The notes: generated by a model not told the origin, from the sequence alone. A stretch of 48,368 nt of DNA from Minisyncoccota bacterium (GCA_017992305.1 JAGOOX010000001.1:1-48368), one strand, 5' to 3'. Positions 2,315 through 42,974 are shown, numbered from the stretch's first letter. Translations and numbers: made by a program.

Positions 2315-2353
2315 GTTAGAATACTCACTTTTCCACATAAAAACCACAAAAAC

Positions 2354-2382
2354 TTGACAAACAGAACATATCTTGCTATACT
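2354..2382 (+). promoter_or_regulatory. Near-consensus sigma70-type promoter (TTGACA-17 nt-TATACT, TGc extended -10) with no ORF downstream
   Basis: TTGACA 2354-2359, 17-nt spacer, TGCTATACT ending at 2382. The next ~900 nt are non-coding. Confidence 0.6.
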
Positions 2383-2388
2383 CTATTT

Positions 2389-2472
2389 GTGAGTTAAGAA
2401 CTCCAACCAGAAACGATTTATTGTAACTGGTTAAAGTCACAACATTACCGCCTTCGGGCGGTTTTGTTGTTT
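2389..2472 (+). ncRNA. Candidate small RNA (~80 nt) bounded by a promoter and an intrinsic terminator; identity unknown
   Basis: Predicted TSS lies ~7 nt after the -10 at 2382. Internal stem aaccag/ctggtt. Terminator CCGCCTTCGGGCGG (2448-2461) plus T-rich run to 2472. Confidence 0.35.
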
Positions 2473-2568
2473 AGATGAAGTTTGTAATTGCTTTGACGAG
2501 CTTGGTCTGGTTGAGCCCAGGATAGGGCGACCCGAGGACCCGAGGAGGAGCAATTACAAGCTTCATCT
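2473..2568 (+). ncRNA. 96-nt long-hairpin RNA candidate (20-bp closing stem, GC-rich apex); identity unknown
   Basis: agatgaagtttgtaattgct (2473-2492) pairs with agcaattacaagcttcatct (2549-2568). The only non-Watson-Crick pair is U2481.G2560, which would be A.C on the minus strand. The apex contains a tandem cccgagga repeat and GG-GCGA-CC. Confidence 0.35.
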
Positions 2569-2651
2569 ACGTGGCCTATTGCATTTAAATTTATATTTGT
2601 AATAATAAGGGTTCGGGGGCGTCATCTTAGTGTAGGCTCCATTTCGTATAT

Positions 2652-2745
2652 AAAAATTACCCCTTTCATGCAGGCATCGATTTCACTCACTTATTGACTT
2701 TGTGGAGTTTGACTCGTTACCTGCATCAAGAGGGTAATTTTTTTT
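2652..2745 (+). ncRNA. Large imperfect hairpin followed by a T-run (structured RNA 3' domain or terminator)
   Basis: aaaaattaccc..atgcagg (2652-2674) pairs with cctgcat..gggtaattttt (2720-2742), then a T-run. No ORF. Confidence 0.25.
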
Positions 2746-2770
2746 GTTTTATACCGTTTGATTTTTTGTA

Positions 2771-2936
2771 GAAAAATAAAAATAGCTTCTCACGCAGGGT
2801 ACGTATATTTTGTCGAGACAAAATTACTCAGTCTCGCGCCGACGCGCTGCGAAGCCCCTGCTTAGAGAACTATTTTATATTTTTCTTCCCCCTCCTTGTC
2901 AGCCTTGGCTGATGGGGAGGGGGTTAGGAGGTGGGG
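2771..2936 (+). repeat. Copy 1 of a ~165-nt GC-rich structured repeat (probable RNA element) ending in a G-rich tract
   Basis: Homologous to 16421-16583 in the same orientation. Termini are conserved and stems covary. 17-bp hairpin 2888-2923 has three G.U pairs. ORF 2810..2992 is an artefact of this element. Confidence 0.7.
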
Positions 2937-3235
2937 ATGTGACTAATTTTTTAATTTTGTTTTTATATTTTCTATATTTCGTTTGTAAATAATAGTTTAC
3001 ATATAGATAATTTTATTAAAAAAGCTATTTTATATATAAAAAATATAGAAAATTTATTATTTTTTATAAGTTTATGTAAATAATAATTTACGTATATACT
3101 TTTTTAACTTTTCCACACATACTAATGCTAAAAATATTGTTATTACATAACTATTAAACGATAATATATGTATAGCAACGAGATGGTTACCTGGTCGCAT
3201 CACGTTGCGCTTATAAATAATATGCATTAATGTTT

Positions 3236-3367
3236 ATGGCAGCAAAGAAAAGAAAGGCAGCTAAAAAAGCAGTTAAAAAAGTAGCAAAAAAGAAAGTTGC
3301 TAAAAAGACTGTAAAAAAAGCAGCTAAAAAAGCAGCAAAAAAGAAAACAGCTAAAAAGAAGAAATAA
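3236..3367 (+). CDS. 43-aa Lys/Ala-rich histone-H1-like (Hc1/HCT-like) basic protein
   Basis: ATG 3236 to TAA 3365-3367 encodes MAAKKRKAAKKAVKKVAKKKVAKKTVKKAAKKAAKKKTAKKKK. A strong terminator follows directly. Absent from the ORF track (<60 aa). Confidence 0.6.
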   Translation: MAAKKRKAAKKAVKKVAKKKVAKKTVKKAAKKAAKKKTAKKKK

Positions 3368-3481: not shown

Positions 3482-5782
3482 ATGGGATTTTTCAATTTTG
3501 GAGGCGATATACGCGAAAAGACAAAGAAAAAATACACTCCTTTTGCGGAGCTTGTTAATAAGCACGAACCTGAATTGGCCAGCAAAAGTGCTGATGAATT
3601 AAAGGCTATTGTTGCTGATTTAAAAACAAGGGTTAGTGAAAAAGGTTTTGACGAATACGTCGAATCAATGGCTTTTGCGTTGGTGCGCGAGGCTTCAAAG
3701 CGCACGATTGGTCAACGTCATTACGACGAACAAATAATTGGTGGCAAAATCATTCACGAAGGCAACATTGCTGAAATGCGCACGGGTGAGGGTAAAACAT
3801 TGGTTGCAACATTACCTGCATTTTTAAATTCATTGTCAGGCAAGGGTGTGCACATTATTACTGTTAACGATTTCCTTGCACGTCGTGATGCTGGTTGGAT
3901 GGGGCAGGTATTTAATTACCTAGGTGTAAGTGTTTCGGTCATTGGTGGTCAAACTTCATTTATGTATGACCCTAGCGTTGTTGCACCCGAAGATACCAAT
4001 GATGAAGAAGTATTTCGTGTTGTCTATGAAAAACTGCGCCCTTGTACACGCCCCGAGGCTTACCAGGCCGATGTTACCTATGGTACCAATAGCGAATTTG
4101 GTTTTGACTATTTGCGAGACAATTTAATATATAGTTTAGATCAAAAAAACCAACGAGGTCACAACTATGCAATTATTGACGAAATAGACTCTATTTTAAT
4201 TGATGAAGCCCGAACACCATTAATTATTTCACAACCAGCCGAAGATAGTGATGAACTGTATGCAAAATTTGCAGGTATTGCCCGAAATTTGCACGAAACC
4301 GAAGACTACTCAATCGATGAAAAAATGAAGGCCATTCAGCTAACTGATAGTGGTATTTCAAAGACTGAAAATGAAATGGGTGTTGAAAATATTTATACCG
4401 AAAAGGGTATTCGTTATGTGCACCACCTTGAAAATGCAGTACGCGCCAAGGCACTGTACCTAAAAGACCGCGACTATGTTGTTAAAAATGGAGAAGTTAT
4501 AATCGTCGATCCTTTTACTGGCCGTATGCAACCAGGCCGCCGTTGGAGCGATGGATTGCACCAAGCTATTGAAGCCAAAGAGGGTGTTAAAGTCGAGCAA
4601 GAAACTAGAACTGTTGGTTCAATTACATACCAAAATTACTTTAGGTTCTACGATAAACTATCTGGTATGACAGGTACTGCCATGACTTCACGCGAAGAAT
4701 TTTATAAAGTTTACAAAATTGATGTTATACCTGTGCCTACACACCGTGCGATTAAACGTGTCGACCACAATGACCAAATCTTTCAAACTGAAAAAGGTAA
4801 ATTTGCCGCCGTTGCTAAAAAGGTTAAAGAGCTACAAAAAAATGGTCAACCTGTATTGATAGGTACTGTTTCAATTGAAAAAAGCGAATTGTTGTCGGCA
4901 TATTTAAATAGCGAGGGTGTAAAGCATACTGTTTTAAATGCTAAAAACCACGAAAAAGAGGGTGAAATAATTGCTCAAGCCGGCCGACGGGGTAGCGTAA
5001 TGGTTGCCACAAACATGGCAGGTCGCGGTATTGATATTATTTTGGGTGGTATGCCAGTTAATGTAGAAGATCAAGAGGCAATAAAGGCCATGGGTGGTTT
5101 ATACGTTATTGGTACTGAACGCCACGAGGCACGCCGAATTGATAACCAGTTGCGTGGCCGTGCTGGCCGTCAGGGTGACCCGGGCGAAACAGTGTTTTAC
5201 GTATCTCTTGAAGACGACCTAATGCGCATATTTGGTTCAGAGCGTATTAAAACTATGATGGGTCGTTTTGGTATACCCGAAGATCAGCCAATTGAAAACG
5301 GTATGATAACCAAAACTCTTGAAAACGCCCAGGCTAAAATTGAAGGCTTTCATTTTGATGCTCGTAAACACACTTTGGAATACGACGACGTGCTAAGCAC
5401 TCAACGAAACAGTATTTACGCTCGTAGAGCTAAATTGGTTGAAAGCGACAAAGCCCAACTTGATATAGTAATTGATCAAATACGTACAACCTTTACCGAT
5501 GTAGATGCGATTTTTGATGACAAGATAAAGGAGTTTGGCGAGGAGGCTTTTTATAATACCTTCAAGCAAATTTGTTTGTACACTAACGATTTATTATGGA
5601 TCGACCACCTAGAAACTATGGAATACATGCGAAATTCGGTTAATTTGCGTGCCTACGGCCAACGCGAACCACTAGTTGAGTATAAAAAAGAGGGCTTGGA
5701 ACGGTTCAGGGCAATGGAGGTCAACTTTTTGGCCGAATGCTTGAATTTGGTCAAGACTATGCAGGTTCAAAAGGGTCAATAA
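3482..5782 (+). CDS. secA: Preprotein translocase ATPase SecA (766 aa, short form)
   Basis: Motifs MRTGEGKT, DEIDSILIDEARTPLIIS, ATNMAGRGIDI, RIDNQLRGRAGRQGDPG. TGCTATAAT ends at 3472, 9 nt before the ATG. Confidence 0.95.
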   Translation: MGFFNFGGDIREKTKKKYTPFAELVNKHEPELASKSADELKAIVADLKTRVSEKGFDEYVESMAFALVREASKRTIGQRHYDEQIIGGKIIHEGNIAEMRTGEGKTLVATLPAFLNSLSGKGVHIITVNDFLARRDAGWMGQVFNYLGVSVSVIGGQTSFMYDPSVVAPEDTNDEEVFRVVYEKLRPCTRPEAYQADVTYGTNSEFGFDYLRDNLIYSLDQKNQRGHNYAIIDEIDSILIDEARTPLIISQPAEDSDELYAKFAGIARNLHETEDYSIDEKMKAIQLTDSGISKTENEMGVENIYTEKGIRYVHHLENAVRAKALYLKDRDYVVKNGEVIIVDPFTGRMQPGRRWSDGLHQAIEAKEGVKVEQETRTVGSITYQNYFRFYDKLSGMTGTAMTSREEFYKVYKIDVIPVPTHRAIKRVDHNDQIFQTEKGKFAAVAKKVKELQKNGQPVLIGTVSIEKSELLSAYLNSEGVKHTVLNAKNHEKEGEIIAQAGRRGSVMVATNMAGRGIDIILGGMPVNVEDQEAIKAMGGLYVIGTERHEARRIDNQLRGRAGRQGDPGETVFYVSLEDDLMRIFGSERIKTMMGRFGIPEDQPIENGMITKTLENAQAKIEGFHFDARKHTLEYDDVLSTQRNSIYARRAKLVESDKAQLDIVIDQIRTTFTDVDAIFDDKIKEFGEEAFYNTFKQICLYTNDLLWIDHLETMEYMRNSVNLRAYGQREPLVEYKKEGLERFRAMEVNFLAECLNLVKTMQVQKGQ

Positions 5783-7077: not shown

Positions 7078-10000
7078 CTAAAGCGCCTTTACTGCTTCGA
7101 TTATAATACTTTTTTCATCGTTGCGCAATGTAACCTTGCCGGCCAGGCCAATTGGCTCGCCTTTTTCGATAGCTGGGAAGAACTCTTTGAAGTTTTTAGG
7201 GAACACAACGGCCTCGATTGAACCTGTTTTGTCTTCAAGTTTTACAAAAGCCATTTGTTCGTTGTTTTTAGTAAAGATTTTGCGATAACCTATAGGTAAT
7301 ACAACTAACTTTATGACTGTATTTTTTTTAGTACTATCAATAATTTCTTTGATAGTTAGGCTTGATTTGCCGTCATATTTATCTAGTGGGTGACCCGAAA
7401 TGTATAAACCTAGCAACTCTTTCTCCCAGTCTAGTTTTTGTTTTTGGGTTGCAGGTTCGCACACCTCTAGTTGCATAGCACGAGACTCTAGGCCTAATGA
7501 AAATAGTGATGTTTGTTCGGTATTGGCCCCAATTGATTTACGATGCTCAAGTATTTTTTCAAGGCTTTGCATTAATTGGTTGCGTTCGCCAAAATCATCA
7601 AGCGCGCCTGATTGTATCAATGCCTCCATTGATTTTTTATTTAAATTTTTGTGTTGTATGCGCTCGATAAAATTATCAATAGTGGTAAATTTACCATTTG
7701 TTTTACGTTCGTTAATTATGGCTTTGCCAATTTCGTAGCCAAAGTTTTTAATACTTTTTAAACCAAAGCGAATTTTGTCGGTCACGACGCCGTCTTCAAC
7801 CACCGTGGTAAAGTCTGAGAATGATTCATTGACTGATGGGGGTAGTATTTTAAAGCCCATACGTTTAGCCTCGACAATCATTTCAGTTACTGTGTCTAGG
7901 TTGTCAGATTCGCAAGTCAGTACAGCCGTCATGTATTCAGACGGGTAGTGAGCCTTCATGTACGCTGTGCGATATGCGAGCAGTGCATACACGGCCGAGT
8001 GAGATTTGTTAAAACCATAGGCGGCAAATGTTTCGATCATGTCCCATAGTTCCTTGGCGGCGCGTGGGTGCATATCATTTTCAATACAGCCATCAATAAA
8101 GTGGTCTTTTTGTTTGGCCATTTCTTCGGGAATCTTTTTACCTACTGCTTTACGAAACTTGTCAGATTCACCACGTGTATAGCCGGCCAGGTCGGTGGCC
8201 ATTCTCATCACATCTTCTTGGTACACGATAATACCATATGTCGTTTTTAAAATTGGCTCCATGCGAGGGTCTAGGTATTTAATTTTGCTTGGGTTGTGTT
8301 TACGTTCAATATAGTCAGGTATAAAAGCCATCGGGCCTGGTCGGTAAAGTGATGCCATGGCGATTAGGTCTTCAAGTGTCGAAGGCTTTAGTTCTTTTAA
8401 CCATTTTTGCATACCACTAGAGCCGAATTGAAAAACGCTCATTGTTTCGCCACGGCCAAACAATTCGTAGGTTAGTTTGTCATCCATTGGTATATCTTCA
8501 AGTTTGATTTCAATATTGCGAATTTTTTTAACCCGTTCAATTGCCTCGGCAATAATTGAAAGGTTGCGCAAACCCAAGAAGTCGAATTTAGGTAAATTAA
8601 TAATACCTTCGCGGTCGCCCGTGTACATACTGTATTGGGTTATAACCTTAGTTTCGCCTTTGGGGTCAAACTGTACTGGTGAGAAGTCATCGATACGACC
8701 AGTGGGTGATATAACAACGCCGGCGGCATGCACCGAAATGTGGCGCACGTTACCTTCGATTTTTTTAGCCATGTCAATAATTGTTTTGACATCGCGTTCT
8801 GTTTCATATGCTTCGGCCAGTTCAGGGGTTAATTCAAGTGCGCGTTTAATTGTCATAGGGAAGCCTTGTGAGCCCATAGGTACTAATTTTGAAATACGGT
8901 CACCGGTTGAATACGGGTAACCCAATGCACGCGCCACGTCTTTGACCGAACCACGGGCCGCCATAGTACCAAATGTACCAATTTGGGCCACTGCATCAGC
9001 CCCATATTTACCTCGGGCATAGTCAATAATTTCATCGCGTCTAGTGTCGGCAAAGTCCATGTCGATATCGGGCAATGATGGCCGGTCAGGGTTTAGAAAA
9101 CGCTCAAAGAGTAGGCCGTACTTCATTGGGTTAATGTTTGAAATACCAATTAAATATGAAACCATTGAACCAGCGGCCGATCCACGTGTTTGGTTAAATA
9201 TGCCCATGCGTGTTGCATTTTTCATAAAGTCAGACACACACAAAAAATATGATGAATAGCCTTTGTCTTGAATAACTTTTAATTCAAAATTTACACGTTC
9301 AACTATTTCAGGCGTTTTTTCAATTTTGCGATCAATGTAGCCTTGTTCAACTAATTGCAACAATTCGCTTTCAAATGTTGTGCCAGCAGGTATTGGGAAG
9401 GTGGGGAAGAACCATGAACTGGTGTCGATATCAATATCAACTAAATCGGCCACCATCATTGTGTTCTCTACTGCCCCTGGAACATCGCTAAATTCTTCGT
9501 AGGCTGTATTTTGGTCAATGAACGACCAGTTGCCATCCATTTTAAAATTATCACTGTTGGTGTTGATTTTAAGTAATGTGTCGTGGGCCTCGTTATCGTC
9601 GGCGCATAAATAGTGCGAATCCCAAGTACCAACCATGGGTATATTTAATTCCTCTGAAATCTTTTTAATTTCAGGGATGACTTGTTTGTACCATTCGTTG
9701 TAAAAATCAGTTTCTTTGTGGCACATGACCTCTAAAAAGACATCGTCAAAACATTCGGTATAAAACTTTATCAATTCGCGAGCCTCTTTGTAATTTTTAT
9801 TGCGAAGTAGTTGTATAAATTCACTGCCTGGGCAACCCGATAGGCAAATAATACCGGCACCATATTGTTTTAATAGGTCTTTGTCCATGCGGGGTTTGTA
9901 GTAAAAGCCCTCTAGGTTTGCCAGTGAAACCATTTTCATTAAATGTTTATAGCCCTCTAGATTTTTAGCTAGTAGTGTTAGGTGGTAGCGTTTTGTGTCA

Positions 10001-10281
10001 ACACCGGCCTCTTTGTCGAACCGTGTGCGGTTGGCAATGTATGCCTCGACTCCAATGATTGGTTTAATGTCGGCTTTTTTGCAGGCCTTATAAAATTCGA
10101 TTGCGCCATACATTGCACCGTGATCGGTTAGTGCCAGTGCTGGCATATTAAACTCTTTGGCCTTTTTAACCAAATCAGTTACCTTTGATAATCCATCAAG
10201 TAGGGAATAATGCGAATGCACATGCAAATGCACGAAATTTTTAGCATCACCTGTATTAGTCTGTGTCACTTTTTCATCCAT
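7078..10281 (-). CDS. dnaE: DNA polymerase III alpha subunit
   Basis: PHP motif [15 protein letters not shown], palm/fingers [18 protein letters not shown]. Start moved to ATG 10281 (MDEKV...); the ORF-track start 10299 is TTG. Confidence 0.95.
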
Positions 10282-10362
10282 GTTGGTTAAGTATACCAAG
10301 AGGGTGGCTTGTTTGACAAAGATTGCTTTTGTGATATTGTTTAGGTTGAAAAAGATCTTATT

Positions 10363-11486: not shown

Positions 11487-11524
11487 AGTGCTAAAATACC
11501 CTTACGAAATAAGGGTATTTATAC

Positions 11525-11553
11525 TTGACTATTTCTATATAAGGTGATATAAT
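11525..11553 (+). promoter_or_regulatory. Promoter of cassette A (TTGACT-17 nt-TATAAT), inside a 60-nt repeat shared with 12258-12286
   Basis: TTGACT 11525-11530, TATAAT 11548-11553. Preceded by the perfect hairpin ATACCCTTA-cgaaa-TAAGGGTAT. Confidence 0.65.
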
Positions 11554-11625
11554 TTTAAGGAAGTCCATATTGGAGGCGGATTCTAGGAACGAACCTATTA
11601 CTGACCGAAGAGTGGCGTTAAAATT

Positions 11626-12165
11626 ATGCACATTTATTTAAGAAAAGACGAAGAATTAGAAAGTGTTATCACGCTTAAAAACACTGAAACAGTACCTCAA
11701 AAATTTTGTGGTCAAACCGTTTGGAACTATGACCTGGTTCCGTACATCGAAATCAATACCGATCTTGAAGCGTTAATGAAAAACGAAACACTTAGAAAAT
11801 TCTTCCTTAGGGCTACACTCATTACGTTTCCAGAGTATCAAAAGATTAATAATCCAAAAAGGAACGGTTGGATTACTCGAGAGTTTGGAGATTATAAATT
11901 GGGTAATGCGACTGCTCAACTTGCACCTGCCAAGTCGGCTGAAACAACTTATTTGCTAAAAGTTGAAACTGATTCATGGCAAGGACTCGTTGATATGGAA
12001 AAATTGCAAAAAAGATTATGGGCCGGTACGATTGCTCCTGTTATTTCTTACGAAAGACAACAGGATAAGCAACACCCACTTACTGTCTTGAAAGAAATTT
12101 TAGGACTGCACAAGTTAAGTGCTTTAAAAAGATTTATTCTTGCAATGAGGTTAACCCGGGCATAA
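11626..12165 (+). CDS. Hypothetical protein, cassette A (179 aa)
   Basis: ORF between the duplicated promoter and terminator. ~72-nt leader. C-terminal tail LHKLSALKRFILAMRLTRA. Confidence 0.6.
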   Translation: MHIYLRKDEELESVITLKNTETVPQKFCGQTVWNYDLVPYIEINTDLEALMKNETLRKFFLRATLITFPEYQKINNPKRNGWITREFGDYKLGNATAQLAPAKSAETTYLLKVETDSWQGLVDMEKLQKRLWAGTIAPVISYERQQDKQHPLTVLKEILGLHKLSALKRFILAMRLTRA

Positions 12166-12184
12166 AGCCTACTTAAGATAATTT

Positions 12185-12216
12185 AAAACCGCTGAAATTA
12201 AGTAAGCGGTTTTTTT
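12185..12216 (+). terminator. Terminator T1 (identical to 12929-12960)
   Basis: AAAACCGCT-gaaattaagta-AGCGGTTTTTTT. Confidence 0.8.
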
Positions 12217-12257
12217 ATTTTTAGCAAAATTACCTTACAAAATAAGGGTATTTATAC

Positions 12258-12286
12258 TTGACAATTTCTATATAAGGTGCTATAAT
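12258..12286 (+). promoter_or_regulatory. Promoter of cassette B (TTGACA-17 nt-TATAAT, TGc extended -10)
   Basis: TTGACA 12258-12263, TATAAT 12281-12286. The 60-nt context is near-identical to 11493-11553. Confidence 0.65.
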
Positions 12287-12366
12287 TACATAGTAAGTTA
12301 TTTTCAAACAGTGACCTAGTAAGCAATGCTGTCGCAAAGTAAATTAGGTACATAAAAAACAAAAAA

Positions 12367-12906
12367 ATGAAACAGGAAACACCTAAAGCAAGTTTGAAGT
12401 TTTTCATTCCCAGTGGGATTGTTGACTCAAGAGAATTTAAAGAAAAAAAGGGTACCTATCATGGCGGTTGTGGCGAATGGTCACCAACAGGAGCCGGATT
12501 TATTCAGTACTCTCATGAATTTTTACACCTACAGCCATCATCCTTTATTTCAGACGATCTCTTACGGTATTTAAATGAAAATGCAACAAGAGTCGTTTTG
12601 CAAATACCGGCGGTACCAAACGAAAAAGTTATTAAAGGTTTAAGGCCTAAAGATAGCACTATTCAAGCAAACCAGGAGAAAGAATTTTCTATTCAGTTAG
12701 GTAAAAGAAGAATCTCAGGTATGAATTGTCAAATACAAAGTTCCTCGTTTGATCTTATCTTTGAAGGTAAATCTTCAAAAGATGTTTTTGAGACATTTCA
12801 CAGTTTTGCACCAGGCTATTTTCCTCAATCTTCTTTTATTCCAATTACTCATTTTTTGAGTGGAATGAATTTTTTTAGAAGGTTGCGTTTAGTTTTTGGT
12901 AAATAA
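12367..12906 (+). CDS. Hypothetical protein, cassette B (179 aa)
   Basis: Same length as cassette A with the same flanks. C-terminal tail THFLSGMNFFRRLRLVFGK aligns with the cassette A tail (H-x-L-S-x4-F). Confidence 0.6.
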   Translation: MKQETPKASLKFFIPSGIVDSREFKEKKGTYHGGCGEWSPTGAGFIQYSHEFLHLQPSSFISDDLLRYLNENATRVVLQIPAVPNEKVIKGLRPKDSTIQANQEKEFSIQLGKRRISGMNCQIQSSSFDLIFEGKSSKDVFETFHSFAPGYFPQSSFIPITHFLSGMNFFRRLRLVFGK

Positions 12907-12928
12907 GCACAAAACAAAATTTTTATCA

Positions 12929-12960
12929 AAACCGCTGAAATTAAGTAAGCGGTTTTTTTA
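12929..12960 (+). terminator. Terminator T2 (identical to T1; bidirectional, also downstream of fmt)
   Basis: Same 32-nt sequence as 12185-12216. Confidence 0.8.
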
Positions 12961-12976
12961 TTTCTAGATAATTTTT

Positions 12977-13834: not shown

Positions 13835-14440
13835 TTATTTTGTCTCTAGTTCTTCGGGTAAAATCTCTTCGACGTCGATGGCTTTATCAATAAATAAAAC
13901 TCCGTTTAGGTGGTCAATTTCATGTTGAAAAATGTGGGCCAATAATCCACCCGCACCACGTACATGTAATTTGGCTGTATGGTCATGGTATTTAATGGTT
14001 ACGTTTGTGTGGCGTTTAACCTTGCCGTATAACCATCGTACTGATAGGCAACCTTCGCCTTCTTTTAAAACTAATTTTTTTGAAGCCTTTATAATTTCAG
14101 GGTTTATGTAAACTTGGTTTGGGGTAGGGGTTTTTGGTGGGTTTTTTTCATCATCAAATACTTTGCCCGACACCATAAATACACGTAGGTTTATACCTAT
14201 TTGCGGTGCGGCAATAGCTACGCCATCACTTTGTGAATCAAGTGATGCTGACATATCGGCAAGCATTGATTTAAATTTTGGACTAGTTATATCAGCTAGC
14301 TTTACGTCTTTACTGATTTTACGCAGTCGGGCGTCGCCATTGGTAATTATTTTATCTACCACTTTTTTAGCAGAGGTTTTAGCTAGGCCAACCGATTTTT
14401 TTATAGTTTTTTTAGCAATGTTTTTATCCATACGGATCAC
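13835..14440 (-). CDS. def: Peptide deformylase with a Lys-rich N-terminal extension
   Basis: Motifs GVAIAAPQIG, EGCLS, HEIDHLNG. GTG start at 14440 overlaps the hisS stop by 1 nt; alternative ATG at 14431. Confidence 0.9.
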   Translation of the reverse strand: MIRMDKNIAKKTIKKSVGLAKTSAKKVVDKIITNGDARLRKISKDVKLADITSPKFKSMLADMSASLDSQSDGVAIAAPQIGINLRVFMVSGKVFDDEKNPPKTPTPNQVYINPEIIKASKKLVLKEGEGCLSVRWLYGKVKRHTNVTIKYHDHTAKLHVRGAGGLLAHIFQHEIDHLNGVLFIDKAIDVEEILPEELETK

Positions 14441-15750
14441 TATTTAAGCTTTTTAAGGTATTCAGCTAGGGCGCTTAGTTTAATAGTTTCTTGTTTACGA
14501 TTGTGCATGTCGCGTACAATAACAGTGCTGTCGATGGCTTCTTTGTGGCCAAAAATTAGAGCATAGGGTACACCTGATTTTTCGGCAATGGCTAGTTGTG
14601 TGCCCAGTGTGTCTTTTGAAATTGATTGCATTATTGGAATATGAGCCAAGCGTAATTGTTCAACAACGTTCAAACTTTTTAATTTAGCTTCAAGGCCAAG
14701 TTGAATAAAGTAAACTTTTGGTTTTTTCATTATACGAGGTTCAAGCTTTTTGTACCAAGATGATTCAATAACACGGTCTACACCAAAAGCCATACCCATA
14801 GCAGGTAGTTCTTTTTTAGCGCCTAGTGTTTTGGCTAAATAGTCGTAACGTCCTCCACCACCTAGTGTTAGTGGGGCTTCGGTGCCATCGCCCATTTCAA
14901 TAATTTCAAAAACGGTGTGGGTGTAATATGACAAACCGCGTACCAGGTTTTTGTTAATGCGGTATGAAATATTCATTTCATCTAAATATTCTAGTACTTG
15001 TTTAAAGTGTTTTTTGCCACTTGCTGACAGGCTTGCCACTGAATCAGGCGCACCTTCGTTGATTTTAATTGTTTTAGGGTCTTTTGAATCAAGTATACGC
15101 AACGGGTTTGTTTTCAAACGTTCGCGATCAATAGGTGGAAGGTCAGATAGGTGTTTTTTGTAGTAATTGGTTAGTTCTTTAATATAACCCGGGCGAGATT
15201 CTTTGTCACCAATTGAGTTAATGTCTACGATTATTTCTTTGGCACCGGCTTCTTCTAGTATACAAACAGCAGTTTTAATAATTAGTGCGTCGGCAATGCT
15301 TTTTTCAGTACCAAGTATTTCTAAATTAAATTGTCGAATTTCGCGGTAGCGACCATTTTGTGGGTTATCGTGACGGTAAACTGGGCCATAACTATATAGC
15401 ATAACTGGTTGAGGCATTGATTGCATACCGTTTTCAAAATACGCACGCATGATTGATGCAGTGTATTCGGGTCGCAATGCTAATTTATCGCCACCTTTGG
15501 TTTTAAGGGTGTACATTTCTTTGTCGACGATGTCGGTGCCTTCACCTACACCACTGACCCACAAAGATTCTTGCTCCATTACAGGTGTTTCAATTGGTTT
15601 AAAACCATAGTACATGGCTATTTCTTGGGCCTTTTCAAAAAAACCTTGGTAGTGGTAATATTTTTCATTCAAAATGTCACGCATACCACGAACTGATTGG
15701 GCAATTTCCTTCTTAGGTTCTTTATTCTGATTTGTTTTTTTATCTGGCAT
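14440..15750 (-). CDS. hisS: Histidyl-tRNA synthetase
   Basis: Class II motifs: RGMRDIL, LRPEYTASIMR, YRHDNPQNGRYREIRQF, GGGGRYD. Confidence 0.95.
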   Translation of the reverse strand: MPDKKTNQNKEPKKEIAQSVRGMRDILNEKYYHYQGFFEKAQEIAMYYGFKPIETPVMEQESLWVSGVGEGTDIVDKEMYTLKTKGGDKLALRPEYTASIMRAYFENGMQSMPQPVMLYSYGPVYRHDNPQNGRYREIRQFNLEILGTEKSIADALIIKTAVCILEEAGAKEIIVDINSIGDKESRPGYIKELTNYYKKHLSDLPPIDRERLKTNPLRILDSKDPKTIKINEGAPDSVASLSASGKKHFKQVLEYLDEMNISYRINKNLVRGLSYYTHTVFEIIEMGDGTEAPLTLGGGGRYDYLAKTLGAKKELPAMGMAFGVDRVIESSWYKKLEPRIMKKPKVYFIQLGLEAKLKSLNVVEQLRLAHIPIMQSISKDTLGTQLAIAEKSGVPYALIFGHKEAIDSTVIVRDMHNRKQETIKLSALAEYLKKLK

Positions 15751-15764
15751 ATTTTTATAAAATA

Positions 15765-16358
15765 TTATTTATTAAGCAGGTCTGTTTCACCGGGTAGGTA
15801 ACTAATTCGGTTTAGGGGCCATAGGCGCAGGTATACTCGGCCGACTAGTTTCTTCTCATCAAGTAAGCCCCACGCGCGTGAATCATAACTAACCGGTCGG
15901 TTGTCACCTAGTACAAAAGCTTTTCCATCGGGTATGGTTATAGTTAAACTGTCGCCATCATGATTTTGTAAATAGGCTTCGTAAATTGTAAAGCCTTCTG
16001 GATGTTCTGTATTTTTTATTGTTATTTTACCGTCAGTTGTTAGGGTAATCGTATCGCCTGGCAAACCAATAAGCCTTTTAACCAAATACTTTTGATTTTC
16101 ATTAGGGAAGTGGAAAACAACAACATCGCCCCTATGAATTTTGTTTAAATTATAGGTTAATTTGTCGACAATTAGATATTCTTTGTCATGAAAAGTTGGG
16201 TCCATAGAAGTGCCCGATACAACAAAAGGTTGCATTATAAAATACCGAATAGGTATAACAATAATTGCTGCAATTATTAAAAACCTAAACAGTTCCTTGA
16301 TATCATCAACGTAATTGCCTTTTTTGCCATCAACTGATGGATTAATTTGTTCATTCAT
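15765..16358 (-). CDS. lepB: Signal peptidase I
   Basis: Motifs SGTSMDPTF, KRLIGLPGD, GDNRPVSYDSR. Start moved to ATG 16358 (MNEQINP...); the ORF-track extension to 16517 reads through the GC-rich repeat. Confidence 0.85.
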   Translation of the reverse strand: MNEQINPSVDGKKGNYVDDIKELFRFLIIAAIIVIPIRYFIMQPFVVSGTSMDPTFHDKEYLIVDKLTYNLNKIHRGDVVVFHFPNENQKYLVKRLIGLPGDTITLTTDGKITIKNTEHPEGFTIYEAYLQNHDGDSLTITIPDGKAFVLGDNRPVSYDSRAWGLLDEKKLVGRVYLRLWPLNRISYLPGETDLLNK

Positions 16359-16420
16359 CTGTGTTAGTATACACTTTTTTAAATATTGACACAAATAGGG
16401 TTTTTGTGTGGTAGGTGCGA

Positions 16421-16583
16421 GAAAAATAAAAATAGCTTCTTGCGCAAGGACCGCATATTTTCCTGAGCGAAAATTGCTCTGGCTCGGCTCGCCAGCCTGC
16501 GCGCGCCCTTGCCACAAGAACTATTTTTATTCCCCCCCCCTCCTTGTTGCCTTGGCCAATGGGGAGGGGGTTAGGGGGTGGGG
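16421..16583 (+). repeat. Copy 2 of the GC-rich structured repeat; ends in the canonical G-quadruplex motif GGGGAGGGGGTTAGGGGGTGGGG
   Basis: Homologous to 2771-2936. Hairpin 16536-16570. G4 motif 16561-16583. Lies in the lepB/pth divergent intergenic region. Confidence 0.7.
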
Positions 16584-16588
16584 TTTTG

Positions 16589-16597
16589 TGTTATAAT
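16589..16597 (+). promoter_or_regulatory. Extended -10 (TGtTATAAT) 6 nt upstream of the pth ATG; leaderless geometry
   Basis: TG 16589-16590, TATAAT 16592-16597, ATG 16604. Confidence 0.55.
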
Positions 16598-16603
16598 CTA
16601 TTC

Positions 16604-17143
16604 ATGTATATTTTCGCACTTGGTAACCCTGGTAAAAAATATGAAAACACTCCGCACAATGCGGGCCAAATTGTACTGCGTGATTTGGCCCCAAGTGGCG
16701 CCCAAATAATTTATCCCGATACTTTTATGAACGAATCGGGCAAGTTTATTAAAAAGTTTCTAGACTATAAAAACATAAACAATACTGAATATAAAAATAT
16801 TGTTATAGTGTATGACGACATTGATTTGCCAATTGGTGAATTTAAACTTGCTTTTGGCCGTGGCGATGGGGGGCACAATGGTTTAATTTCAGTCATTAAC
16901 GAATTAGGTACCCGCGATTTTATACGACTACGCATTGGTATTTGCCCAACTGACAGTAATGGTAATGCGCGCAAACCTAAAAACATATTTGGTCAAAACA
17001 CAACGCACAAATACGTATTACGAAATTTGTCACCTAACGAAACTACTAAACTAACTGCCAATCGCTCAAAAATCAAAAATATTTTAGAATCACTATACAT
17101 AAACGGTTACGAAAAAACCGCTAGTTTTATGGGGGTTTTGTAA
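16604..17143 (+). CDS. pth: Peptidyl-tRNA hydrolase
   Basis: MYIFALGNPGKKYENTPHNAGQ N-terminus, GRGDGGHNGL motif. The ORF-track start 16544 lies inside the repeat. Confidence 0.85.
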   Translation: MYIFALGNPGKKYENTPHNAGQIVLRDLAPSGAQIIYPDTFMNESGKFIKKFLDYKNINNTEYKNIVIVYDDIDLPIGEFKLAFGRGDGGHNGLISVINELGTRDFIRLRIGICPTDSNGNARKPKNIFGQNTTHKYVLRNLSPNETTKLTANRSKIKNILESLYINGYEKTASFMGVL

Positions 17144-42589: not shown

Positions 42590-42672
42590 GCGTCGATGGC
42601 GGAGTGGTCAATCGCATTTGACTGTAAATCAAACGACTTATGTCTACGCAGGTTCGAATCCTGCTCGGCGCA
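42590..42672 (+). tRNA. tRNA-Tyr (anticodon GTA), long variable arm
   Basis: Acceptor GCGTCGA/TCGGCGC, anticodon stem-loop TTGA-CTGTAAA-TCAA, T-arm GCAGGTTCGAATCCTGC. Confidence 0.9.
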
Positions 42673-42953
42673 CAAATAATAAAAACCGAAGGCAACGGCC
42701 TAAGGTTTTTATTTTATGTGGCAGAGAGGTTCGAACCGTAGGCGCACATTTTATAATGCGCGTTTCGACCGTAGGAAGAGGCGAATCCTGCTCGGCGCAC
42801 AAATGATAAAAACCTAGGTTATAACGGCCTAAGGTTTTTATTTTTTGTGGCAGAGAGGTTCGAACCGCAGGCGCCAATTTTTAAGAAATAAAAACTGTGC
42901 GTCTCGACTGAAAGGAGAGGCGAATCCTGCTCGGCGCACAAATGATAAAAACC
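42655..42953 (+). repeat. Three direct copies of the tRNA-Tyr 3' end plus flank (33 nt), within a ~127/139-nt tandem repeat
   Basis: cgaatcctgctcggcgcacaaat(a/g)ataaaaacc at 42655-42687, 42782-42814 and 42921-42953. aacggcctaaggtttttatttt.tgtggcagagaggttcgaaccg is also duplicated (about 42694-42738 and 42823-42867). Confidence 0.85.
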
Positions 42954-42974
42954 CTTTTAAAGCAAAGGGTTTTT
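42947..42974 (+). terminator. Rho-independent terminator after the third repeat copy
   Basis: AAAAACCCTTT-taaagc-AAAGGGTTTTT. Confidence 0.75.

Follow-up and report, generated by a model that had tools for sequence, protein, structure and literature searches.

The element at positions 2770-2936 raises the question of what a repeated, G+C-rich and strongly folding sequence between housekeeping genes represents: one structured RNA of about 165 nt encoded on the plus strand, as the sequence-only reading had proposed, or something else. The window analysed here, i.e. the whole stretch of DNA of 48,368 bp, has a G+C content of 37.7% and forms a complete contig of a MAG labelled Candidatus Pacebacteria/Paceibacterota. 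It carries housekeeping genes, among them those for SMC (65-2314), SecA (3482-5782), DnaE (7078-10299, minus strand), HisS (14440-15750, minus strand), LepB (15765-16361, minus strand) and Pth (16604-17143, plus strand).

Other repeated sequences were observed elsewhere in the window. Two tandem ORFs of 179 aa (11626-12165 and 12367-12906) are each preceded by a promoter-like block (92% identity between the two) and followed by a terminator block (91% identity), so that a whole transcription unit appears to have been duplicated recently in the region 11493-12974. Downstream of a tRNA-Tyr gene (42590-42673), its 3' end (...GAATCCTGCTCGGCGCACA) is present in part twice more (42757-42814 and 42896-42953), interleaved with a 59-nt unit that is repeated twice (42694-42752 and 42823-42881). 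This array (42590-42974) possibly consists of integration scars or pseudo-tRNA repeats.

The two copies and their surroundings

The direct repeat was confirmed, with copy 1 at 2770-2936 and copy 2 at 16420-16583, both on the plus strand. Their alignment contains three small indels and has a mean column identity of 85% (200 columns including flanks). The core pattern derived from the two copies matches the window twice, compared with 0.00 expected matches in 100 shuffles, and a profile search of the window revealed no third copy. The G+C contents of the copies (49% and 55%) exceed those of the window and of the spacer around copy 1 (34%; 2315-3229), and both strands of the copies fold far better than shuffled sequence.

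Copy 1 begins with a 117-nt imperfect palindrome, H1 (2770-2886), which is assigned to the minus strand, the strand favoured by the wobble pairs of its family. Its outer stem AGAAAAATAAAAATAG / CTATTTTATATTTTTCT is followed inward by P2 (TTCTC/GAGAA) and P3 (GCAGGG/CCCTGC), and the cap is a three-way junction. The earlier statement that the element has no terminal inverted repeats is wrong for H1: AGAAAAATAAAAATAGCTTCT (2770-2790) and AGAACTATTTTATATTTTTCT (2866-2886) are inverted complements of each other. The three-way-junction core (2801-2854, minus strand) belongs to variant V3 and comprises P4 (2804-2812 with 2819-2826), P5 (GCGC 2836-2839 with GCGC 2844-2847) and the junction strands CTCAGTCTCG and CTGCGAAG. 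A second hairpin, H2 (2888-2923, plus strand), has the form CCCCCTCCTTGTCAGC-CTTG-GCTGATGGGGAGGGGG; three G.U pairs on the plus strand were found as described before, and folding gave 16 bp instead of 17. The G-rich block GGGGAGGGGGTTAGGAGGTGGGG (2914-2936, plus strand) provides with its first 10 nt the 3' arm of H2, while the remainder forms a single-stranded tail.

In copy 2, H1 is an imperfect palindrome of 112 nt (16420-16531, minus strand) with a core of variant V1 (16451-16507, minus strand), in which P4 is formed by 16454-16462 with 16469-16476 and P5 by GGCT (16486-16489) with AGCC (16494-16497). In its H2 hairpin (16532-16570, plus strand), a run of nine C followed by TCCTTG... pairs with ...GGGGAGGGGG, and the G-rich block GGGGAGGGGGTTAGGGGGTGGGG (16561-16583, plus strand) contains four G-tracts of at least 4 nt with the loops A, TTA and T.

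The four paired substitutions reported between the copies are all present (TTCTC/GAGAA versus TTCTT/AAGAA, GCAGGG/CCCTGC versus GCAAGG/CCTTGC, ATTTTG/CAAAAT versus ATTTTC/GAAAAT, and TCAG/CTGA versus TTG/CAA), although several of the positions given for them were off by 1 or 10. TTCTC is located at 2787-2791, GAGAA at 2865-2869 (not 2875-2879), CCCTGC at 2856-2861 (not 2866-2871) and TTCTT at 16437-16441. Despite the same outer termini and H2 modules, the copies carry cores of different subfamilies, V3 and V1; therefore, part of their compensatory difference reflects old subfamily divergence and not recent drift.

Copy 1 lies in a 915-nt spacer (2315-3229) between SMC and an ORF of 45 aa upstream of SecA. 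This ORF (3230-3367) is rich in Lys and Ala (KKAAKKAVKK...), shows a 12-nt periodic repeat, has no Pfam match and is conserved in L047, a close relative. Upstream of copy 1, the spacer contains a predicted terminator with a T-run (2447-2462) and then a long hairpin with a T-run (2652-2750). In the interval 2354-2470, a near-consensus promoter TTGACA-17-TATACT (upstream TG, 11/12) is present just past the SMC stop codon, with an intrinsic terminator, ACCGCC-TTCG-GGCGGT plus T-run, about 65 nt downstream that is identical in L047. Promoter and terminator could delimit a transcription unit of about 80 nt, possibly a small RNA or peptide gene. Another hairpin module, H0 (2476-2575), is built like H1, with a variable stem and a conserved core: arms of 19 bp (AGATGAAGTTTGTAATTGC / GCAATTACAAGCTTCATCT) enclose a G+C-rich core of 57 nt. 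The orthologous spacer of L047 lacks H0, and the H0 core was found in L104 (10100-10167, 90%) and L015/L016 (10836-10900, 83%). The hairpin at 2652-2750, directly upstream of H1, has 29-nt arms (83% complementary) followed by T8 and is almost identical in L047; this hairpin could be a structured RNA that includes a terminator.

Copy 2 is located between the divergent genes lepB (minus strand) and pth (plus strand), directly upstream of the extended -10 box of pth (TGTTATAAT, 16589-16597, plus strand), which abuts the copy, lies outside the element and is placed 6 nt before the ATG at 16604. The -10 boxes of both lepB (TATACT; 16361-16376) and pth (16589-16606) are found 6-7 nt before the start codon, and neither gene has a Shine-Dalgarno sequence. 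This arrangement is kept in distant relatives (seen in L013, L015, L066 and L125) and suggests that the lepB and pth mRNAs are leaderless. Gene models become too long here because of repeat copy 2: mechanical over-extension of lepB creates a spurious ORF of 250 aa (15765-16517, minus strand) that crosses the copy, and the mechanical call for pth (16544-17143, plus strand) comprises 199 aa and runs into the repeat, compared with 194 aa in the database entry.

Two separable modules

The element had been described as a single unit of 165 nt; in relatives, each of its two modules, H1 and H2 with the G-rich tail, was found without the other. The lepB|pth regions of relatives were retrieved via Pth homologs. 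At this site, L010 (Pth 92% identical) lacks both H1 and the 5' arm of H2 and keeps the G-rich string alone, and in L013 (Pth 87%) and L015 (Pth 73%) H1 is inverted and H2 is missing. Conversely, H2 with its tail occurs without H1 in L010 (after pth), in L011 (after gyrA) and also in L094. In the SMC-SecA spacer of L047 (about 90% identical), H1 is kept as the ortholog of copy 1, with two double substitutions from T-A to C-G in the outer stem, and the H2-like module is strongly diverged and located 16 nt further off. The wobble pairs of H1 and H2 lie on opposite strands, which is further evidence that the modules are independent. By sequence comparison, the 165-nt repeat evidently consists of two dispersed repeat modules that are unrelated to each other and became fused in this lineage. 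Since near-identical composites of H1, H2 and tail occupy at least four loci (window copy 2, L031=L033, L140 and L027=L114) and a composite of the copy 1 type was found at a second locus (L069), the fused unit itself has been dispersed in this lineage.

The second repeat, H2 with its tail, is independent of H1 and combines a hairpin of C-rich and G-rich arms with a tail of G-tracts. Its wobble pairs, CCUU/GGGG and CUCUCC/GGAGGG, are on the plus strand. In five GC-rich IMG/VR contigs (L001-L005, 48-64% G+C), GGGGAGGGGGTTAGGNGGTGGGG is preceded by its own CCCCCTCC arm. Such H2-like hairpins with G-tract tail occur two to three times per viral contig, on one strand throughout in L003/L005 and as an inverted pair about 60 nt apart in L004, and they are preceded by CTTACT(C/T) in L001 and L003/L005. 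The block AAAAATAAAAATAGCTTCT at the 5' side was also tried as a link to viral contigs and rejected, as its four matches are chance matches with no likeness past the block.

In this lineage, H2 with its tail usually appears to lie just upstream of an extended -10 promoter box. TGnTATAAT follows within a few bases in copy 2, L069 and L140, and copy 1 has the degenerate form TGTGACTAAT. The tail of copy 2 (G4-A-G5-TTA-G5-T-G4) has the four G-tracts of at least 3 nt with short loops that define a G-quadruplex motif, while the third tract of copy 1 is GGAGG. The sequence thereby permits a predicted G-quadruplex, which would compete with the hairpin, two of the tracts being paired in H2.

The AGGAGGT, 5-nt spacer and ATG-TGA that had been noted as a minimal start-stop unit are indeed present in copy 1, where ATG-TGA (2937-2942, plus strand) overlaps the -10-like TGTGACTAAT box. 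They do not recur: the start-stop unit is absent from copy 2, from the L047 ortholog of copy 1 and from the other composite copies, and is conserved in no other copy. Small ORFs or a type I toxin within the element were considered as well and rejected, as the stem sequence is not conserved and no conserved start codon exists.

The H1 family, its fold and its selected strand

Further copies of H1 were found in CPR MAGs and in metagenomes. Genome scans yielded four near-identical copies in Candidatus Nomurabacteria MFUC01, one in Paceibacterota DASZPN01 and two composite copies in CAZQAX01. A metagenome scan with a pattern for the core only (ATATTTT-N6-8-AAAATT-N-CT-NN-G-N12-16-CTGCG) gave at least 120 loci, and a profile search of the listed loci gave at least 137 non-overlapping matches, with up to six in 14 kb (L144). 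Among the matches listed, the contigs with H1 cores span 29-51% G+C; L060 (50% G+C) has a Yonathbacteria-like host. In MFUC01 (L018, L022, L028 and L029), a third repeat module of about 45 nt, GCCTACATACAGATACTTCAGACAGCCACAG, adjoins H1 in either orientation, and the intergenic regions of this genome are BIME-like mosaics of several repeat modules.

Members of the family are long hairpins of 90 to about 170 nt (about 115 nt for the window type). The conserved part is the tip, a three-way junction of about 55 nt, and the closing stem is always present with variable sequence and length. On the strand equivalent to the plus strand of the window, the core reads (G)CACG-N-AUAUUUUUC-UGCU-GAAAAAUU-N'-CUCUGCUCG-[P5]-CUGCGCAAGG, where AUAUUUUUC/GAAAAAUU form P4, P5 is a covarying G+C helix of 4-5 bp and the junction strands are near-invariant. 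Two architectures were distinguished: type A, to which the window copies belong, with stems ...AUAG(C)UUCU... / ...AGAACUAU..., and type B, a rod of about 150-170 nt whose outer helix contains as many as 20 perfect pairs and which has an additional conserved internal loop (6x6, YUUUCUY / YKCRACGA). The three core variants (V1 87, V2 8 and V3 14 of 109 sequences) coexist in many contigs.

H1 is apparently a widespread family in Parcubacteria/Paceibacteria that has not been described previously. The view that the element belongs to no named RNA family held: Rfam 15 at gathering thresholds gave no match on either strand of the window, and with E-values up to 10 both copies matched only microRNA- or lncRNA-type models, by chance and far below threshold. 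Six consensus-like H1 copies from L144 also had no Rfam match, so that none of the 4227 models fits H1. Measured against what we take to be their sequence and architecture, resemblances to hammerhead, twister, hairpin, group II domain 5 and K-turn motifs and to SRP, 6S, Y RNA, attC, retron and bridge RNA were rejected, and the Rfam models for most of these candidates likewise gave no match. The strings of H2 and the core returned nothing in the searchable literature, which also contained nothing relevant on CPR structured RNA or on Patescibacteria MITEs or ncRNA. A BLAST search with copy 2 found no match in collections of annotated phages and plasmids.

An alignment of 109 sequences (A2) was used for analysis of covariation. 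Here, 79.8% of cells are paired compared with 62.7% in shuffles, and the covariation score of 0.429 exceeds both the 0.154 of shuffled alignments, none of 500 reaching the observed value, and the maximum of 0.211 obtained when partners were slid. P4 is paired to 98%, with both sides changing in seven of its nine pairs; its closing pair occurs as C-G (52), A-U (29), G-C (10) and U-A (6), and P5 pairs switch among G-C, C-G and A-U. Mutual information calculated without a given structure recovered only Watson-Crick partners, namely P4, P5, the closing stem and one isolated junction pair, which covaries as well (CG 66, AU 14, UA 3, GC 2). H1 thus shows the compensatory helix changes beyond controls that are expected of a functional RNA. 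Of the proposed new structured RNA family, the conserved and covarying secondary structure of H1 stands; the description as a single plus-strand RNA with a start-stop unit does not.

The strand on which H1 is selected was derived from fold stability and wobble pairs. The complement of the ATATTTT...CTGCG strand is the more stable one in 110 of 113 copies (mean -40.8 versus -34.9 kcal/mol), and closing stems contain 167 G.U pairs on the complement strand versus 26 on the other before de-replication. After de-replication to 77 copies, 95 versus 22 G.U pairs were counted, with the complement favoured in 49 stems and the other strand in eight (p = 2.7e-8). These counts are based on folds and tolerate bulges; they replaced an ungapped, position-by-position count of G.T versus A.C near the core, which gave 46 versus 48 and no asymmetry. 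For H1, the minus strand of the window is therefore the single strand under selection, and a strand-specific ssDNA hairpin predicts the same G.U tolerance as an RNA. The plus strand, previously suggested as the probable functional form of the whole element, is favoured by the H2 hairpin alone.

Explanations for H1 and comparison with known systems

What has to be explained is the established modularity of the repeat and the H1 family with its structure, covariation, strand asymmetry and distribution. The reading that we consider best, and hold tentatively at a little below an even chance, is that H1 is a non-autonomous, structure-dependent mobile or replicative repeat, copied through a single-stranded intermediate and recognised by its tip. 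It is preferred because H1 has a defined active strand, random gene orientation and no promoter of its own. The minus-equivalent strand, as RNA or ssDNA, would be the copying intermediate, and a trans-acting protein would read the conserved tip; the stem sequence changes freely as long as pairing is kept, the tip is conserved, and H1 is multi-copy, occurs in any intergenic context, is gained, lost or flipped between close relatives and is fused to other repeat modules. The separation of the modules at lepB|pth, the near-identical composites at several loci, and the strong covariation together with the strand asymmetry and the missing Rfam match argue for such a repeat, as do three Logan contigs that begin within H1. 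Orientation and gene context also show no preference: among the loci listed, 75 classified copies are distributed relative to the flanking ORFs as 22 divergent, 22 and 15 co-directional in the two orientations, and 16 convergent.

Several results speak against mobility. Across the flanks of at least 10 copies no target-site duplication was found (TA is present on both sides in L013 only), no flanking tetranucleotide is conserved, and the two ends of the composite share no sequence. No transposase, reverse transcriptase or HUH gene recurs among the 445 ORFs within 2.5 kb of copies; the clustered neighbours are housekeeping proteins (HisS, LepB, Pth, S1/PNPase, FtsK, ABC ATPases) and one winged-helix protein. 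Whole-contig metagenome matches are not enriched at contig ends (7 versus 8.6 expected), and the G.U asymmetry defines a strand and cannot separate RNA from ssDNA. The core is kept across genera, and the same sites are used in distant lineages: the lepB|pth spacer is also occupied in L066 and L125, whose Pth is just 31-33% identical to that of the window, and H1 lies downstream of rpoD in L055, L077 and L131 and downstream of def in L038 and L068. Such recurrence is more typical of a host-functional element or needs a strong insertion-site preference. Since close relatives vary at lepB|pth (H1 absent, forward or inverted), we infer that this position is an insertion hot spot and not a case of ancient retention.

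The winged-helix protein was observed as a neighbour in its own right. It has 260-300 aa with a C-terminal winged helix (weak DeoR-like match), adjoins ftsK and was located in L074 (6897-7685), L144 (12182-13018), L150 (37-855), L044 (2748-3647) and L086 (694-1473). H1 cores lie 20-300 nt from its gene in seven loci of three lineages, sometimes on both sides. The protein may be a binding partner of H1; alternatively, its gene only marks a conserved insertion site.

Site recurrence would follow directly if H1 were a host-functional structured RNA made from the G.U-favoured strand, e.g. a protein-binding or catalytic RNA, a processing or stability element or a multi-copy small RNA, with copies and positions determined by function. 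We regard this as the less likely reading but as a serious competitor, with much in its favour: the near-invariant junction with its covarying isolated pair, the covariation of the helices, the strand-specific wobble pairs, the second conserved loop of type B, the coexistence of three core variants in many different contigs, and positions shared by distant lineages. On the other hand, orientation relative to neighbouring genes is random, many copies lie between divergent promoters, and close relatives lack H1 at a shared site or carry it inverted there. Downstream of rpoD, the favoured strand is antisense to the mRNA. Neither a consistent gene orientation or position nor an own promoter plus terminator was found: no -10 box or T-run occurs at constant distance on either strand (with crude hairpin boundaries, median 233 nt), and neither was predicted adjacent to the window copies. 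A dedicated cis-regulator or small-RNA gene is therefore not indicated.

Distinctly less probable is that the hairpins are quasi-palindromes at the DNA level, whose arms are matched by template switching or intra-hairpin repair and which have no function as single strands. The outer stems, unique to each copy, commonly show perfect pairing over 16-24 bp, concerted double changes separate orthologs that are just about 10% diverged, and these genomes contain other hairpin modules of like construction (H0; 2652-2742). Templated repair, however, predicts no strand asymmetry, and G.U-compatible mismatches are about four to six times more common on one strand; the near-invariant unpaired junction bases across genera would also be left without explanation. 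It is even less credible that the hairpins serve to terminate transcription in both directions or to insulate neighbouring genes. Many copies are bordered by A-rich and T-rich outer arms, many are positioned 0-50 nt past stop codons, and orientation would be irrelevant for such a role, but 22 of the 75 classified copies lie between divergent starts, where there is nothing to terminate, and neither the conserved three-way-junction tip nor the strand asymmetry is accounted for. A terminator scan called neither H1 nor H2, H2 is followed by UUAGG... (TTAGG in the DNA) and not by a U-tract, and several copies precede an ordinary terminator. Least credible of all is the original proposal of one plus-strand RNA of about 165 nt, possibly a cis-regulator with a Shine-Dalgarno sequence and a start-stop mini-ORF at its end, for although the plus strand folds well (z = -5.3 for copy 1), H2 has its G.U pairs there and copy 1 carries AGGAGGT-N5-ATG-TGA, the modules are separable, H1 favours the other strand, the start-stop unit is unique to copy 1, copy 2 is upstream of the -10 box and hence outside the pth transcript, and copy 1 is downstream of the predicted terminator and the hairpin with T-run.

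A bolder possibility, which we consider doubtful, is that the H1 core, together with the 6x6 loop of type B, is a phylum-wide, high-copy structured nucleic acid with its own biochemical activity, either a ribozyme of a new kind or the module by which a novel mobile element of CPR is recognised, an element mediated by RNA or ssDNA that replicates independently of classical transposases. If this were true, an active class of H1 elements would shape the intergenic space of minimal CPR genomes. To our knowledge, CPR/Patescibacteria have very small, streamlined genomes whose non-coding part has hardly been explored. With more than 100 copies and no Rfam entry, H1 would be among the first abundant non-coding elements described for CPR. 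It raises the questions of how a repeat spreads in genomes largely without classical insertion sequences, which protein reads the tip, and whether promoters or structures are donated to neighbouring housekeeping genes. In practice, such repeats can break assemblies and pass for genes.

Returning to the preferred reading of H1 as a mobile or replicative repeat, known systems offer partial parallels. Like classical MITEs, H1 is multi-copy, shorter than 300 bp, non-coding and polymorphic for presence and absence. Conserved terminal repeats in common with an autonomous IS were not found, the ends of H1 being variable and its interior conserved, and no IS was detected in the flanks of copies, which agrees with the earlier view that the element is not a classical transposase-type MITE. 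ERIC/IRU, Correia (NEMIS), BOX, RUP and bcr1-type repeats or MITEs are likewise imperfect palindromes of 100-170 nt in either orientation, with lineage subfamilies, modular structure (BOX A-B-C), predicted folding when transcribed and promoter boxes carried or abutted. They are restricted to genera or families and have conserved terminal repeats, often with TA duplication, whereas H1 occurs in several candidate orders, has variable ends and showed no duplication. IS200/IS605-derived PATEs resemble the composite in the lack of terminal inverted repeats and duplication, in the hairpins near both ends and in strand-specific ssDNA chemistry; unlike in PATEs, the end hairpins H1 and H2 are unrelated, the left junction has no cleavage tetranucleotide, no TnpA or TnpB gene is nearby, and the IS605-orfB models of Rfam gave no match.

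Orphan structured ncRNA motifs (Weinberg/Breaker-type Rfam candidates) share with H1 the conserved multi-stem junction, invariant junction bases, covarying helices and a variable closing stem comparable to P1 of a riboswitch. H1 differs from them by the lack of gene orientation, many copies per genome and closing stems of 20-40 bp. REP/BIME and REPIN sequences of proteobacteria, which are mobilised by RAYT, a Y1 HUH transposase, are like H1 short, non-coding, multi-copy intergenic hairpins that form mosaics with other motifs, and they share compensatory hairpin upkeep, one active DNA strand and the lack of transposase-type terminal repeats and target duplication. No GTAG-type motif with inverted doublets was found in H1, and no RAYT-like gene was seen in 1.1 Mb of flanks or among the 445 ORFs within 2.5 kb of copies. 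REPs avoid promoter regions and H1 elements do not, and the hosts of H1 are CPR, a different phylum. In construction, the two are opposites: REPs have a conserved stem and a variable tip, and H1 has a variable stem and a conserved, asymmetric tip, the 55-nt three-way junction.
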